Source: Patescibacteria group bacterium (GTDB taxonomy: Bacteria; Patescibacteriota; Patescibacteriia; 2-01-FULL-39-33). Taken from it: 32,000 nucleotides of DNA. Shown piece after piece: positions 5,421 to 11,593 of the stretch (its first letter is position 1; the number at the start of each line of letters is the position of its first letter). The stretch spans positions 150,001-182,000 of the forward strand of contig JBAZMW010000002.1 in assembly GCA_041649575.1 (NCBI GenBank), given 5' to 3'. Position numbers and translations under genes: made by a program. A model generated the notes under the pieces. It worked only from the letters and a program-made list of their open reading frames with translations, had not been told where the DNA came from and ran no database searches.

Positions 5421-6531
5421 AGAAAAAGTGGTAGTAGCGATGAGTGGTGGCGTTGATTCCTCCGTCGCTGCGGCCTTACTCAAAAAACAAGACTATGAAG
5501 TGGTTGGAGTTTTTATGCAGTTTTGGTTTCCCTTGTCTCGCCAGGGACAAGCGGAGGCGGGCTCGTTTACTAAAAATAAAACCATTCAGTCAAGTATAAA
5601 TACCAAGGTTTACGAAGAAAACCGCTGTTGTAGTTTGAGGTCTTGGAACGAAGCGCAACAAGTGGCGCGAATTCTGGATTTTCCTGTTCGCAAGGTAAAT
5701 TTCGGACGGCAATTCAAAAAACTGATTGTTGATGAATTTTTGCGTGAGTACAGACTGGGTCGCACTCCCAACCCTTGTGTCGCTTGCAATAAATTTATCA
5801 AATTTGATTTGTTGTTGAAATATGCGAGAACTGTTTTTGGTGCGGATTATTTGGCTACCGGGCACTATGCTAGCTTGGTGTCATTCAAATTAGGACGGCC
5901 CAAAGACAGACAAAAAGACCAGACTTATTTTTTGTATAATTTAAAACAAGCACAATTAAAGCACCTGCTTTTTCCGCTTGGTAATTATACTAAAAATGAG
6001 GTCAGAAAATTGGCTAAGAAGTTTAAGCTGCCGGTTTTTGATAAGCCGGACAGCCAGGAAATCTGTTTTGTGGGGCAGTCACATTATGATTTTTTGAAGA
6101 AATATTTGCGCTTACAGCCGGGTAAAATCATTAGCAACCAAGGAAAAATATTGAGAACGCATCAGGGTCTGCCCTTGTATACCCTGGGCCAAAGGAGCGG
6201 CTTGGGGCTTTCGGGCGGACCGTGGTATGTGGCTGAAATGGATTATAAAAAAAATCGGCTGGTTGTCACCAAAAAAGAAAAGCAGTCAGCAATCTTTCGA
6301 AAAGAATTAGTCGCCCAAAAAGTTAATTGGCTTTTTGGCGAACCAAAATTTCCTCTCATATGCCAGGCGCAAATTCGTTATCATGCCCGGTCGGCCAGTT
6401 GTCTGGTGAAAAAGCAGGACCAAAAGATTGTTGTTGAATTCAGGCAAAAGCAGCGGGCGATAATGCCCGGCCAATCTGTGGTTTTTTATCAAGGTGATGA
6501 GCTGTTGGGCGGGGGAGTGATAGTGGGTTAG
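5413..6531 (+). CDS. mnmA: tRNA 2-thiouridine(34) synthase MnmA
   Basis: PP-loop VVAMSGGVDSSVAA, plus CCS, NPCVACN, ATGHYA and DQTYFL motifs. Overlaps the upstream gene by 8 nt. Confidence 0.9.
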   Translation: MAKEKVVVAMSGGVDSSVAAALLKKQDYEVVGVFMQFWFPLSRQGQAEAGSFTKNKTIQSSINTKVYEENRCCSLRSWNEAQQVARILDFPVRKVNFGRQFKKLIVDEFLREYRLGRTPNPCVACNKFIKFDLLLKYARTVFGADYLATGHYASLVSFKLGRPKDRQKDQTYFLYNLKQAQLKHLLFPLGNYTKNEVRKLAKKFKLPVFDKPDSQEICFVGQSHYDFLKKYLRLQPGKIISNQGKILRTHQGLPLYTLGQRSGLGLSGGPWYVAEMDYKKNRLVVTKKEKQSAIFRKELVAQKVNWLFGEPKFPLICQAQIRYHARSASCLVKKQDQKIVVEFRQKQRAIMPGQSVVFYQGDELLGGGVIVG

Positions 6532-6639
6532 TACAGAAGGAGTCAGGTTAATAATAAAAAAAGAAGACAAAGATCGGGCAGAAGAGGTTTTAGAAATTGG
6601 TAATAAGTAAATTATTAATAATAAACAAAGATTTAACGT

Positions 6640-6668
6640 TTGACATAATTTTGAAAGCATAATAAGAT
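6640..6668 (+). promoter_or_regulatory. Sigma70-type promoter for the 6771 ORF
   Basis: TTGACA (6640-6645), 17-nt spacer, TAAGAT (6663-6668), followed by AAT. Confidence 0.55.
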
Positions 6669-6770
6669 AATATATCTTTCTCCAGAGAGAATGATTCATA
6701 GTCCACTTGTGGTGGAAGATGATTGCACAAAAGACAAGGGAACAGGAACCCAAGAAGGAGGCTGTACGTC

Positions 6771-7592
6771 ATGATTAAAAGAACCGTCGTGGGGCGACTT
6801 TTCCGTGATTCTGGCGCATTCGGCCAGTTGACGCCGCCGCCCGGTCTGGAGGGAACCATTGGTGATCCCGATTGGGATTTCTTCTCGAAGCTGCCGCCGC
6901 GTTTTGATTTTCTGGAACTCTGCGATCGGGTCGGCCACGCTTTTGAGATGTCCGAGTCACCCATCTCGCCCTCCGACTGGGAGGACCAGTTCGAAAGTCA
7001 GAAGGAGCGGCTGCTCGCTCTGTCCGGCTGCTCTGATGGCCATGGCATCGTGCTTTTGCCCGGCCTATTGCCAGTGGCTCCCGGTGATTGTATCAGGAAG
7101 AGCCTTTTCAATGTCTACATCCCGGCGGTAGAACGCGGCTACGGGGCGATCTATCCCAAGAGGGCTTTTGAGGATTGGTGTGATGGTCGGGCGGACAGTG
7201 TCGCGGCTTTTCCCGGAGTGGGCCACGAGCATCTAATCCACCTCGCCAGTAAAGGCTTGGTCGCCGTCTTCGTCTACATCGCCCATTGTATGCGGGCGTG
7301 GCCCGTCTCGACCCAGCGCCGACTGCCACGGAAGTTGTTCAAATCGAATTTCTCCTTGGCCGGCGGCTGTGACACGCTTTCCGTCCTGTCTCTGCACCCT
7401 GATATTCTCGCCGCTGGTTTCTGTAGCCCGACGATCGAGCTCAGTGCCTTGCAGACAGATTCGCCGCGCCTCTCGATCTGCGTGGTGCCAGAAGACAAAC
7501 GCCTCAGACTCGACATCTGGGGTAATCCCGACGATTTCGCGCCTGAAGCTTCAGGAGGGCTTTCGTTCTGGAAGGAGCAACCTGTCTTCTAG
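6771..7592 (+). CDS. Hypothetical protein (273 aa), GC-rich island A
   Basis: The track ORF 6723..7592 is trimmed to ATG 6771, which follows the SD GAAGGAGG by 8 nt. It is the longest ORF in a stop-depleted region. No motif recognised. Confidence 0.65.
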   Translation: MIKRTVVGRLFRDSGAFGQLTPPPGLEGTIGDPDWDFFSKLPPRFDFLELCDRVGHAFEMSESPISPSDWEDQFESQKERLLALSGCSDGHGIVLLPGLLPVAPGDCIRKSLFNVYIPAVERGYGAIYPKRAFEDWCDGRADSVAAFPGVGHEHLIHLASKGLVAVFVYIAHCMRAWPVSTQRRLPRKLFKSNFSLAGGCDTLSVLSLHPDILAAGFCSPTIELSALQTDSPRLSICVVPEDKRLRLDIWGNPDDFAPEASGGLSFWKEQPVF

Positions 7593-7681
7593 CTGGCGCG
7601 CCTTAGCCGGCTGCCGGAGTTCTCTAATTGGGGCTAGTGATCATACCAATCACCGGCCTCTGTTTTTTGTTTTAAGCGTAG

Positions 7682-7710
7682 TTGACATTGATAATGAAAA
7701 CCCTTAAGAT
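7682..7710 (+). promoter_or_regulatory. Sigma70-type promoter for the acyltransferase gene
   Basis: TTGACA (7682-7687), 17-nt spacer, TAAGAT (7705-7710), followed by AAT. These are the same hexamers and spacing as at 6640. Confidence 0.55.
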
Positions 7711-7763
7711 AATCTTTCGATCTTTCAAGTTAAACTAGTAAGGCAACCATGGAGGGAGCTGCC

Positions 7764-8501
7764 ATGTTTCTGGTATTATTTTCCATTCTGGTCTACCCAG
7801 TGGCCTTTGTCACCTTCGTCGTTTGCGCCTCAATCTACCTGGCGTTTGTCTTTGTCTTCAAGTCGCTGGGCTGGGAGCTGCAGTACCTGGGGCCGTTGGT
7901 TCGGTTTCTGGCTCGCGTGATTCTCTTGAGTTGTGGCCAATGGCTCAAGGTTGGGGGCAACTGGCCCTCTCCGACTATCGGGCCTTGCATCTTTCTCTTC
8001 AACCACAGCTCTATCCTGGATGCTCTGGTGGCTGGCGCGGTGCTAAAAGGACGGTTCACTGGCGTGGCTGCCCAGGAGTATTTCTTTTGGCCGCTGTGGG
8101 GAACCATTATGCGCTGGCACAATATCATTCCCATCAAGCGCAAGTGCCACGACGAGGCCATAGAGAGCATGCGGCGGGCGGAAGAGGCGATAAAAAACGG
8201 CTGGTCAATAGGCGGCTTTCCCGAGGGCACCAGAAGCAAGACAGGAGAGTTGCAGCCGTTCAAAAAGGGCCTTTTCTATGTGGCCAAGGCCACGGGCGCG
8301 CCGATCGTGGTGATAGCCATCAAGGGGGCGTACCGTGCCAAGAGTCGCGTCGGTTGGTGTGTTCGGCCGGGAGTGATAACGGCCACTATCGGCAAACCCT
8401 GGACCCTGTGGTCTAACGGAAAGCAACGGTATGCGGCCTTGTCGGTGGAAGAGTTAAGGCAACTGGCCGAAGGGCTCATGGCAACCATGCTCGAAAGTTG
8501 A
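7764..8501 (+). CDS. plsC: 1-acyl-sn-glycerol-3-phosphate (lysophospholipid) acyltransferase, PlsC/AGPAT family
   Basis: HX4D motif NHSSILD, FPEGTRS motif, PIVVIAI block and an N-terminal TM segment. The start is moved to ATG 7764, just downstream of the SD GGAGGGAG. Confidence 0.85.
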   Translation: MFLVLFSILVYPVAFVTFVVCASIYLAFVFVFKSLGWELQYLGPLVRFLARVILLSCGQWLKVGGNWPSPTIGPCIFLFNHSSILDALVAGAVLKGRFTGVAAQEYFFWPLWGTIMRWHNIIPIKRKCHDEAIESMRRAEEAIKNGWSIGGFPEGTRSKTGELQPFKKGLFYVAKATGAPIVVIAIKGAYRAKSRVGWCVRPGVITATIGKPWTLWSNGKQRYAALSVEELRQLAEGLMATMLES

Positions 8502-8531
8502 GCGTCAGGCGGTTCCCGCTAGCGTAAGTAT

Positions 8532-8563
8532 CCGGCAACAGCGATGTTTGCCGGTTTTTCTTT
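8532..8563 (+). terminator. Intrinsic terminator ending island A
   Basis: CCGGCAA (8532-8538) / TTGCCGG (8548-8554), then TTTTTCTTT. Confidence 0.65.
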
Positions 8564-8609
8564 ACTTGATAAAATCTCCTAATTTGTTATAATTCAGTCA
8601 AACATTTTT

Positions 8610-10427
8610 ATGACCGCCAAAGAACTCAAACAAAAATATTTAGAATTTTTTGAGCGCCACGGCCACCAGATTATTCCTGGCGCCTCACTGATTCCGGAGA
8701 ACGACCCGACGGTTTTATTTACCACGGCCGGCATGCATCCGCTCGTGCCTTATCTGCTTGGCGAAAAGCATCCCGCCGGCACACGCCTGGCCGATGTCCA
8801 AAAATGCATCAGGACCGGCGACATCGACAGCGTGGGCGACGACTGGCATCTGACTTTTTTTGAAATGCTGGGCAATTGGTCGCTGGGCGACCCCAAGGAT
8901 CCCAAAGGGATCGGGGCAGGTTATTTCAAAAAAGAAGCCATTGAGATGAGTTTTGAATTTTTAACCAAAGAGTTAAATATACCTTTGGAAAAATTGGCGG
9001 TTTCTTGCTTCGCCGGCGATGATGATGCGCCAAAAGACGAAGAATCGGCGAGTGCTTGGCGTTCGCTGGGGATCAGTGACAAACGGATTGCTTTTTTGAG
9101 TAAGGAAGATAATTGGTGGCCGGCCGGTGGCAAAATGCCCGGTCCTCAAGGCCCGGACACGGAGATGTTTTATTGGAACTCGGATGAGTCGGCGCCGGAA
9201 GATTTCGACCCACAGGACAAGCGCTGGGTGGAAATCTGGAATGATGTTTTTATGCAATATAACAAGGCCGCCGACGGCAGCTACCAGCCGCTGGTGCAAC
9301 AAAATGTCGATACCGGCATGGGATTGGAGCGTACCGTTGCTATCTTAAACGGCAAAAAAAGCGTCTACGAAATCGAGCCGCTCTTAACCGTTTGTTCGCA
9401 AGTAACGGCTTTATTCGAGAGCACCCTGGAAGAACTGGAAGCCGAACAAACCAAAGCCGTCAGAATCATTGCCGATCATTTGCGCGCCGCCGTCTTTATT
9501 TTGGCCGAGAGCGTGGCGCCCTCCAACGTTGAACGTGGCTATGTCCTGCGCCGGCTGATTCGGCGCGCTATTCGCTATGGCAAGCAACTGGGCATCAAAG
9601 ACGCTTTCACTGCCAAAGTGGCCGAAGTGGTCATCGCGCAAATGGGCGGATTTTATAAGGAACTAAGAGAACAGCGAGATTTCATTATCGATGAATTAAA
9701 CAACGAAGAAGAAAAGTTTAGCGCTACTTTAGAAAACGGCTTAAAAAAGTTTGAAAAATTAAAAATTGACGAGCAAAAAAAGATCAGCGGCCAAGATGCT
9801 TTTATTCTTTTTTCCACTTATGGTTTCCCTTTGGAGATTACCAAAGACTTGGCCACCGAGCGCGGTTGGCAAGTTGACGAAGAAAATTTTAATCTAGAAT
9901 TTGCCAAGCATCAGGACATTTCCCGAAAAGGCGCCGAGCAAAAATTCAAGGGCGGTTTGGCCGATAATAGCGAAGTGACGGCCAAGATGCATACCGCCAC
10001 GCATTTGATGTTGGCGGCTTTGCGCCGGGTGTTGGGCGATCACGTTTACCAAAAAGGTGCCAACATCACCAGCGAGCGCATTCGCTTTGATTTTTCCCAT
10101 GGCGAAAAAATGACAGCAGAACAAATCAAGCAAGTGGAAGACTTGGTCAATGAACAAATTAATAAAAAGATTCCCGTGGTCTGCGAAGAAATGACGCTAG
10201 AAGAAGCCAAGGAGAGGGGAGCGATGGGAGTTTTTAAAAATAAATACGGCGAGCGGGTTAAGGTTTATACCGTCGGCGATCCCTCGGCAGGATCGGGACA
10301 GGTTTTTTCCAAAGAGATTTGCGGCGGTCCGCATGCCGCCAACACCGGTGATCTGGGCCACTTCAAAATCCAAAAAGAAGAATCCAGCTCCGCCGGAGTC
10401 AGAAGAATTAAGGCGGTTCTGGAGTGA
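8610..10427 (+). CDS. alaS: Alanine--tRNA ligase, short form (605 aa, no C-Ala/DHHA1 domain)
   Basis: The N-terminus FFERHGH...SLIP.NDPT.LFT.AGM is typical of AlaRS. The editing-domain motifs HTATHLM and CGGPH are present. The protein ends shortly after the editing domain. Confidence 0.92.
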   Translation: MTAKELKQKYLEFFERHGHQIIPGASLIPENDPTVLFTTAGMHPLVPYLLGEKHPAGTRLADVQKCIRTGDIDSVGDDWHLTFFEMLGNWSLGDPKDPKGIGAGYFKKEAIEMSFEFLTKELNIPLEKLAVSCFAGDDDAPKDEESASAWRSLGISDKRIAFLSKEDNWWPAGGKMPGPQGPDTEMFYWNSDESAPEDFDPQDKRWVEIWNDVFMQYNKAADGSYQPLVQQNVDTGMGLERTVAILNGKKSVYEIEPLLTVCSQVTALFESTLEELEAEQTKAVRIIADHLRAAVFILAESVAPSNVERGYVLRRLIRRAIRYGKQLGIKDAFTAKVAEVVIAQMGGFYKELREQRDFIIDELNNEEEKFSATLENGLKKFEKLKIDEQKKISGQDAFILFSTYGFPLEITKDLATERGWQVDEENFNLEFAKHQDISRKGAEQKFKGGLADNSEVTAKMHTATHLMLAALRRVLGDHVYQKGANITSERIRFDFSHGEKMTAEQIKQVEDLVNEQINKKIPVVCEEMTLEEAKERGAMGVFKNKYGERVKVYTVGDPSAGSGQVFSKEICGGPHAANTGDLGHFKIQKEESSSAGVRRIKAVLE

Positions 10428-10843: not shown

Positions 10844-11200
10844 ATGAGTCAAAAGACTGGCATACTATTGCTGCTGTTGCGGCCGAAAGACGGAGCGGCC
10901 GTCTTCTTGGACTGGACCCAGAACGCCCTCTTCATGCTGGAGAGCGCGAGTGCCACAGGCGTTTCGCCGTTGGCCGAGAGGGAAGATCTGGCCAAGTGTA
11001 TGAAGGGTTACGAGCTGTGTCCCGCGCTTGGCTACGGCCTATGCGCCAGGTGCCCTATGTCAGTCACCGGCGGTGCTCTCTGTAATTTCTGGGCTTCCCA
11101 GGGATTCGCCCGCGTGCTCGACGCGCGCACAGAAGAGGAGGCGACCTTTGCCGATCTCGATGCCATGCGCGCCGCGCTCACCGCTTCCATTACCGGCTGA
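10844..11200 (+). CDS. Hypothetical protein (118 aa), GC-rich island B, gene 1
   Basis: SD GAAGGAG 8 nt upstream of the ATG. Contains 5 Cys, including CARCP. No family recognised. Confidence 0.65.
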   Translation: MSQKTGILLLLLRPKDGAAVFLDWTQNALFMLESASATGVSPLAEREDLAKCMKGYELCPALGYGLCARCPMSVTGGALCNFWASQGFARVLDARTEEEATFADLDAMRAALTASITG

Positions 11201-11215
11201 AAGGAGAACACGGAC

Positions 11216-11593
11216 ATGCCAACGGTACAAGTGGCCGCGATAAATCTGCCGGCTGGCGCCTTCCTTTTCTTCTATCCGGAACACGCCACCCCCCAGTACC
11301 TTCTGTACAAGAATATCTGGCTGGGACAGACGATGTTCAGGCAGAAGCTAAACGAAGACGAACTTCAGGCTCTCCTCGCCGCCGGTCGAAATGGGTGGGA
11401 GGAAGTGGGCGAGGTGACTCGACGAGAGTTGCAGGCCGCGGATCTCTCTGGACTGGTTCGCAATCTCAAGACCAGGTGCGTCTGGCCCGAGAATGCGACC
11501 GCGTCAATCGCTGTCAGTCCTGACTGCAGCGGACGATGCTCGGAGTGTCGCGGGTGCTATAGCGACATGGAGCCAGTCACAGTAGAGCGATAG
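11216..11593 (+). CDS. Hypothetical Cys-rich protein (125 aa), GC-rich island B, gene 2
   Basis: SD AAGGAG 9 nt upstream of the ATG, which lies 15 nt after the gene 1 stop. C-terminal cluster C-x17-C-x3-C-x2-C-x2-C (RCVW...DCSGRCSECRGC). Confidence 0.65.
   Translation: MPTVQVAAINLPAGAFLFFYPEHATPQYLLYKNIWLGQTMFRQKLNEDELQALLAAGRNGWEEVGEVTRRELQAADLSGLVRNLKTRCVWPENATASIAVSPDCSGRCSECRGCYSDMEPVTVER

Follow-up and report, generated by a model that had tools for sequence, protein, structure and literature searches.

Do two neighbouring GC-rich genes of a Patescibacteria genome belong together as an acquired lipid module, or does each have a history of its own? The genes lie in the window analysed here (the whole stretch of 32,000 nucleotides, G000:C2:150001-182000), which belongs to genome G000, a metagenome-type assembly of 920 kb in 5 contigs with 44.3% guanine plus cytosine (GC) and 97.9% completeness. 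One gene encodes a 273-amino-acid (aa) protein and the other a PlsC-family lysophospholipid acyltransferase (LPLAT). A reading made from the letters of the window (hereafter the sequence-only reading) had taken the PlsC gene as compositionally foreign and the 273-aa protein as a candidate partner in lipid metabolism. Both open reading frames (ORFs), at 6771-7592 and 7764-8501, were present as described there. We compared them with 24 genomes of the same taxonomic family (G001-G024) and with a class-wide sample of 301 genomes. The comparison suggests that the stretch quite probably holds two independent units, a native PlsC gene and an orphan, non-diversifying cassette whose protein belongs to a family linked to diversity-generating retroelements (DGRs).

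The 273-aa protein matched no entry of Pfam or NCBIfam, and word-indexed homologue searches with it, as a single sequence or as a profile, found nothing. Six-frame searches of relatives revealed homologues in G021 (39% identity), G023 (33%) and G018 (25%), all at loci unrelated to that of the window. Further, an exhaustive HMMER profile search yielded 473 cluster representatives, mostly of about 300 aa, 112 of which had E <=1e-30, and the window protein matched the family profile with E values of 2.5e-73 and 1.5e-71. The alignment (A3) spanned the whole window protein, except that an N-terminal domain of the family was absent from the window copy. Of the 301 genomes sampled from the class, 38 contained members, frequently two or more per genome, and none of the members matched Pfam or a sequence in the PDB. 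Relatives have conserved counterparts of the ORF, but these lie at other loci. The statement that it carries no recognisable motif held for the curated libraries and failed in so far as the protein is a member of a large DGR-linked family.

The link to DGRs was found at the 3' ends of the genes. At several family loci, a near-copy of the last ~42 codons, rich in Asn (AAY) codons, was located ~0.5 kb downstream of the gene. In seven loci (L022, L027, L029, L034, L037, L043 and L047), we could pair a variable region (VR) with a template repeat (TR) over 108-132 nt at 81-88% identity. Adenine made up approximately one quarter of the TR bases, and 120 of the 133 VR/TR mismatches were at TR adenines. 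Mutagenic retrohoming is defined by such adenine-specific mismatches between VR and TR. These seven loci and L040 further possessed a reverse-strand avd gene followed by a reverse transcriptase (RT) 37-50% identical to the DGR RTs of genome G000, and the cassette layout in relatives was target-TR-(avd)-RT. Such a DGR cassette was located within 1.5 kb in 8 of 28 family loci. As judged from these sequences, the family is Patescibacteria-wide and its canonical members are DGR variable proteins, in which the RT would write a copy of the TR, with errors at adenines, over the 3'-terminal ~42 codons of the target.

VR and TR remained homologous through the TAG stop codon, which accounts for the near-universal ending '...SGGLLFLG-TAG-TG' of the family and for the spurious in-frame TAG flags on many family matches. 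Recoding of an in-frame TAG was considered and rejected, because TAG is the terminal stop and the profile match extends beyond it. Coupling of a downstream ORF through a TAGTG stop/start overlap was likewise rejected, because no conserved downstream ORF begins there. At L040 (G073:C26, 1492-2454), the gene had an Asn-rich, TR-like 3' end (RANLADANDNYSGG...) that ran past the usual stop and abutted avd and the RT gene; this may be a collapse of VR and TR in the assembly or a real fusion. Two loci, L065 (G125:C6) and L085 (G266:C12), encoded proteins of 191-192 aa with the family leader and the ~40-residue N-terminal domain in front of a different body, which suggests that this domain is modular. 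In nearly all genomes and whatever the GC content of the host, the family genes were 10-27 GC points above their flanks (L021-L050, 28 loci; for example, 68% against 42% and 49% against 24%), for which we have no explanation.

The window copy differs from the canonical members in having neither a TR nor a dedicated RT. A whole-genome blastn search of genome G000 found no repeat of the 3' end of the window gene. Further, this 3' end had no nucleotide similarity to the TRs of relatives or to those resident in the genome (z <=3.2; z 2.8 and 0.6 for the resident TRs). The resident TRs belong to two apparently complete DGRs on contig C3, each with an RT, a reverse-strand avd, a TR and at least one VR, whose mismatches were adenine-specific on the coding strand and which contain the sole RTs of the genome. 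DGR 2 had two VRs, one of them at the contig end. The targets of these DGRs, 243 and 197 aa long, were GC-rich, had no Pfam match and were unrelated to the window family (hhalign probability 0.3%). Because neither a TR nor a dedicated RT was found for the window copy, we consider its 'variable' region to be frozen.

Other members of the family showed a similar state. The window copy formed a subclade in the alignment with those of G021 and G023; this subclade lacked the N-terminal domain of ~40 residues and possessed central motifs of its own, YIADCMRxWPV and SLAGGxD. No RT and no TR were found in G021 (95% complete), the genome of the nearest homologue; in G023, there was no TR, and an RT-like match was only sub-threshold. 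Two canonical copies were present in G095 (99% complete), in which no RT was found. Thus, as far as these genomes show, members of the family commonly persist without a DGR. Genome G000 also contained a second, full-length copy (C4:52975-53937; L049) within a GC-rich islet (C4:52901-57000). The 3' end of the C4 copy resembled the TRs of relatives (z 9-18), matched no resident TR and was repeated nowhere in the genome.

With an alignment of 32 sequences, AlphaFold2 (AF2) modelled the window protein with a predicted local distance difference test (pLDDT) score of 88 and a predicted template modelling (TM) score of 0.88; with four sequences, the pLDDT was 32. In the model, the VR-equivalent residues lay in β-strands, mostly with pLDDT ~90, and with 76 for residues 251-260. 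A Foldseek search of the PDB gave a best E of 0.63, a query TM score of <=0.26 and nothing at E <=0.001, although very diverged C-type-lectin folds can escape Foldseek. No solved DGR variable protein was among the 50 PDB matches listed, and nothing in BFVD was significant. No signal peptide or transmembrane segment was seen in the protein, which is cytoplasmic by sequence.

Several signs indicate that the window copy is likely functional. The ORF was intact, its truncated architecture was kept in two other genera, the fold was predicted with confidence, and a promoter, a Shine-Dalgarno sequence and a terminator were retained. It would yield a folded cytoplasmic binding-type protein of fixed specificity.

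The cassette at 6640-7673, which comprises a promoter, a structured leader, the 273-aa gene and a terminator (Table 1), is located in the spacer between mnmA and PlsC and would constitute a transcription unit of its own. The terminator-like hairpin, with one stem mismatch, sits just 5' of the PlsC promoter. An alternative start, TTG at 6723, would give a 289-aa form of the 273-aa protein. The extended promoter TTGACAT-N(15-17)-TAAGATAAT occurred at just two sites in the 920-kb genome, 6640-6671 and 7682-7713, which flank the cassette. We considered a duplication of the promoter, left as an insertion scar, and rejected it as unlikely, because the PlsC promoter was also present in relatives without the insert. 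The -10 sequence TAAGAT and the leader stretch GAAAACCC...CTTTCAA were common to the window and its nearest PlsC loci, L002 and L001; therefore, we regard this promoter as native to PlsC.

Table 1. Coordinates of the features discussed. Positions refer to the window unless a contig (C3) is named.
Feature	Position	Strand	Details and basis
Promoter-like site of the cassette	6640..6668	+	TTGACA-17-TAAGAT; 10/12 consensus positions; aligns with family promoters
Structured 5' leader	6669..6770	+	hairpin H1 6675-6694; second hairpin 6697-6716 (the family's pseudoknot position); AAGGAGG in 6755-6764
273-aa gene, orphan family member	6771..7592	+	homology, AF2 model, no template repeat in genome
VR-equivalent region, residues 227-268	7449..7574	+	LQTDSPRLSICVV...SGGLSFWK; alignment A3 against relatives' VR/TR pairs
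Terminator-like hairpin and T-run	7630..7673	+	GGGGCTAGTGATCATACCAATCACCGGCCTC TGTTTTTTGTTTT; sequence and ViennaRNA fold
PlsC promoter-like site	7682..7710	+	TTGACA-17-TAAGAT; promoter scan
PlsC-family lysophospholipid acyltransferase	7764..8501	+	245 aa; N-terminal hydrophobic anchor; sole PF01553 gene of the genome
DGR 1	C3:74705-77411		RT 74705-75784; TR 76149-76256; VR 76707-76814
DGR 2	C3:188494-191558		RT 188494-189624; TR 190035-190147; VRs 190564-190673 and 191225-191337

The leader of the cassette can be compared with one that accompanies the family. In family leaders, the promoter is followed by a variable hairpin, a compact H-type pseudoknot and then a hairpin that abuts the Shine-Dalgarno sequence; no Rfam entry matched. 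The core of the pseudoknot is [CCC]-GG-(GCCTC)-[GGG]-CA-(GAGGC)-AAAA. In 22 relatives, 183 of the 184 pseudoknot cells were paired, compared with 85% in shuffles (0 of 2000 shuffles reached the observed value), where the pairs were counted on explicit segments chosen partly by pairing, so that the paired fraction is somewhat inflated. Compensatory changes were observed in both stems, S1 (for example, TTT/AAA and CTC/GAG) and S2 (nine stem variants). A MAFFT alignment of the leaders mis-registered the pseudoknot cores, and RNAalifold on a MAFFT alignment gave just the 3-bp S1 stem. The core pattern was found at 53 places in 43 of the 301 genomes, and 17 of 30 places fetched preceded, by 22-60 nt, either a family gene or a gene whose product has the family's N-terminal domain. 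In genome G000, the pattern preceded only the C4 copy (C4:53972-53993). In the window leader, S2 could pair at 5/5 positions (TCCAC/GTGGA) and S1 at just 2/3, and the subclade of the window had an extended plain hairpin at the position of the pseudoknot, as was seen also in the nearest relatives L017 and L018.

The second gene is a PlsC gene, as the sequence-only reading had recognised. Its product matched Pfam PF01553 with E 2e-28 and 99.2 bits (gathering cut-off 23) and contained motif I (HX4D) as NHSSILD at 8001-8021 (residue 80), motif III as FPEGTRS at 8217-8237 (residue 152) and hydrophobic residues 1-32. An alternative start, ATG at 7749, would give a 250-aa form; we prefer the start at 7764 because GGAGGG is present at 7752-7757. 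In its HX4D and FPEGTR motifs, its length of ~245 aa and its N-terminal membrane anchor, the protein is similar to bacterial PlsC and LPLAT acyltransferases (PF01553; E. coli PlsC, NF011593). It differs from them in that it scored far under the equivalog cut-offs (41 bits against 501 for NF011593 and 84.9 against 102.95 for TIGR00530) and in that its genome had no match to an acyl carrier protein (ACP) or acyl-CoA ligase for the usual donors. The sequence evidence thus supports the assignment at the family level only.

PlsC was found in 9 of these 24 relatives (G001-G024), and its slot between mnmA and alaS was occupied by PlsC across several genera. The order mnmA-(0 or 1 small ORF)-PlsC-alaS was observed in G010, G014, G024 and G012, with a small ORF after PlsC in some of them. 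G012 further possessed the full backbone of the window (TrwB-N, T4CP, CarS, kinase, mnmA, PlsC, alaS), and G015 had PlsC-alaS. In G013, the order was kinase-mnmA-...-PlsC-alaS, with other DNA between mnmA and PlsC. The nearest database relatives were 49% identical to the window PlsC, and one of them, L001 (mnmA-PlsC), lies directly 3' of an mnmA end. In a maximum-likelihood tree, the window sequence was sister to L001/L002 (84/76) and then grouped with G010 and G013 (83/90), apart from the sequences of other taxonomic families and of the database, and no foreign clade was seen. The tree was congruent with the relatives and revealed no foreign donor clade, so the description of PlsC as acquired-looking is contradicted by both gene order and tree. 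We consider that PlsC was in all likelihood vertically inherited in an ancestral slot between mnmA and alaS, where it has its own promoter. PlsC was patchy among the relatives, and the copy in G016 had three in-frame stops; by its distribution, the gene appears to be dispensable for many relatives.

The spacer between mnmA and PlsC is a variable slot (6532-7763 in the window; the same slot in L005, L007, L011, L055 and L056). In G010 and L001, it was empty, with 74-160 nt; in G012 and G014, it contained an ORF for a 141-144-aa Cys-rich zinc-ribbon-like protein; and in G013, it contained a 406-aa ORF. These ORFs were unrelated to the 273-aa gene, which was not detected in this spacer in any relative examined and at this site is specific to genome G000. 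By profile search, the 273-aa family was present in 6 of the 24 genomes (G003, G007, G018, G021, G023 and G024). The family and PlsC occurred together in only one of the 24, G024, where they were 313 kb apart. A role for the 273-aa protein as a lipid partner is opposed by this overlap, by the promoter and terminator of its own gene and by its absence from the slot in relatives, and the two proteins probably have no functional tie.

The two genes are GC-rich for their genome. Among the 650 long ORFs of genome G000, the 273-aa gene (57.8%) was at the 97th percentile and the PlsC gene (56.7%; 0.70 at third codon positions) at the 95th. Approximately 40 islets of >=56% GC were present in the genome, and 50 of the 650 long ORFs (7.7%) had >=55% GC, so that the GC-rich island of the window is not unique. 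Further, the PlsC orthologues of several relatives exceeded their flanks in GC (56% against 50% at L001; 51% against 36-42% at L010), and high GC is therefore a poor indicator of transfer here. Accordingly, of the proposal that PlsC is compositionally foreign, the raised GC was borne out and the foreign origin was not, given the synteny, the tree and the GC-rich orthologues. No integrase or transposase ORF was found in 6400-8700, and there were no convincing flanking repeats around the stretch. A second GC-rich islet of the window, at 10844-11593 (60% GC), contained two small Cys-rich ORFs that are unrelated to the two genes described here, without a Pfam match or a paralogue within genome G000.

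The lipid genes found in the genome were the one PlsC gene, a CarS-like gene, a lipid kinase gene and two genes for CDP-alcohol phosphatidyltransferases. The neighbours of the window genes, namely the CarS-like gene (PF01864, 4.7e-35; NF003114, 156 bits with a cut-off of 148), the lipid kinase gene (PF00781) and mnmA, were as the sequence-only reading had stated. Their proximity to PlsC reflects a conserved backbone order in which mnmA interrupts the series, and no evidence was found at the locus for an operon linking CarS, the kinase and PlsC. In this 97.9%-complete genome, there was no match to PF00550 (ACP), PF00501 (acyl-CoA ligase), PF02504 (PlsX), PF02660 (PlsY), PF02645 (DegV) or PF00109 (ketoacyl-ACP synthase), a result consistent with salvage. 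Because these marker families for fatty-acid synthesis and acyl donors were unmatched, PlsC most likely serves lipid salvage, in which it would re-acylate lysolipids obtained from other cells. Thus, of the proposed salvage or remodelling module, salvage in a reduced organism agrees with the unmatched markers, and the joint acquired module does not stand.

A pattern of lipid salvage has been described in bacteria of the candidate phyla radiation (CPR), in which lysolipids are enriched (Probst et al. 2020, PMC7242380). The present genome resembles the CPR gene sets for lipid salvage in having PlsC without PlsX or ACP, with lipids presumed to come from other cells, and the enrichment of lysolipids fits a re-acylating enzyme (PMC7242380). 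It differs from them in that PlsY was also unmatched and that PlsC was found in just the nine genomes counted above.

These observations can be set against other explanations of the locus. If the whole stretch were a horizontally acquired module for lipid salvage or remodelling, in which the 273-aa protein worked with a foreign PlsC, the atypical composition of both genes, the CarS-like and lipid-kinase genes nearby and the unmatched lipid-synthesis markers would all be accounted for. However, PlsC has conserved synteny and a congruent tree, and a terminator and a separate promoter stand between the two genes. Further, homologues of the 273-aa protein are located at unrelated loci, mostly in PlsC-less genomes (with the single overlap in G024); the family is linked to DGRs and not to lipid genes; and neither mobility genes nor flanking repeats were found. 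We consider this explanation very improbable, and the reading as a lipid module gained by horizontal gene transfer is largely refuted. Still smaller is the chance that one of the C3 DGRs actively diversifies the 273-aa gene from a distance. Two apparently complete DGRs are present in the genome, and non-phage DGRs are known to reach targets >100 kb away (PMC5758913), a precedent for such an arrangement; however, the similarity of the 3' end to both TRs was at the level of shuffles, blastn found no repeat in the whole genome, and the C3 targets are unrelated to the family.

The remaining explanation, that the 273-aa ORF is a decaying, non-functional remnant, left from a DGR target after its retroelement disappeared, is unlikely and yet carries more weight than these two. 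The N-terminal domain and the canonical '...SGGLLFLG-TAG-TG' end are absent from the window copy, stem S1 of the pseudoknot is weakened in its leader, and its 3' end, unlike that of the C4 copy, has no nucleotide similarity to any TR. On the other hand, the ORF of 273 codons is intact, and its promoter, Shine-Dalgarno sequence and terminator are too. Confidence in the AF2 model is high along almost the full length. G021 and G023, at 33-39% identity, have kept the shortened architecture with the motifs YIADCMRxWPV and SLAGGxD, and preservation of the frame at this divergence argues for selection on the shortened form.

Some observations weigh against two independent units of the kind proposed. 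The high GC of PlsC and the 273-aa cassette in genome G000 (95th-97th percentile) is without explanation, and it could be a sign that the whole stretch was replaced via recombination with a GC-richer close relative. The supports in the PlsC tree are moderate (84/76 and 83/90). The activity of either gene and the lack of diversification are inferred, and a template repeat could, strictly speaking, still lie on unassembled DNA of a genome that is 97.9% complete. We nevertheless judge a native PlsC gene beside an orphan, non-diversifying DGR-family cassette to be the probable arrangement at this locus.

PlsC and DGR variable proteins are both known kinds of gene; the fold, the leader and the persistence without a DGR are new leads, and the result is modestly novel in this sense. 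A more speculative extension, which we hold only tentatively and think is rather doubtful, would describe the family as an undescribed DGR scaffold other than the C-type lectin, controlled by a pseudoknot leader that possibly senses a ligand or a protein, and the window copy as a variant frozen after loss of the retroelement. By the same tentative extension, PlsC would perhaps be a donor-independent transacylase acting on scavenged phospholipids like tafazzin, another member of the PlsC superfamily. The PlsC found here is a further instance of the known CPR puzzle of lipid acylation without ACP, and a supposed acquired lipid module is removed as a false lead.

The targets of CPR DGRs have been reported to possess no recognisable domains and unclassified VRs (Roux et al. 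2021, PMC8144416; Wu et al. 2018, PMC5758913). The canonical members of the present family agree with these variable proteins (clade 2, PMC8144416; the 'CPR set' with UVR1-6, PMC5758913) in their target-TR-(avd)-RT cassettes, in a VR formed by the last ~42 codons with adenine-specific mismatches, and in the lack of a recognisable domain, a signal peptide or a transmembrane segment. In contrast, the window copy has no TR or dedicated RT, its subclade has no N-terminal domain, and the family brings a pseudoknot leader of its own. Among the PDB matches listed for the predicted fold of the window protein, there was no solved C-type-lectin or immunoglobulin variable protein. An orphan ORF can now be placed in a large unannotated family, which can be designated a DGR variable-protein family of Patescibacteria and which is distinguished by a confident fold without a solved relative, a leader outside Rfam and many copies in RT-less genomes. 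The family bears on a question raised in both of these studies (PMC8144416; PMC5758913), namely what role the domain-less, apparently cytoplasmic targets of CPR DGRs play.

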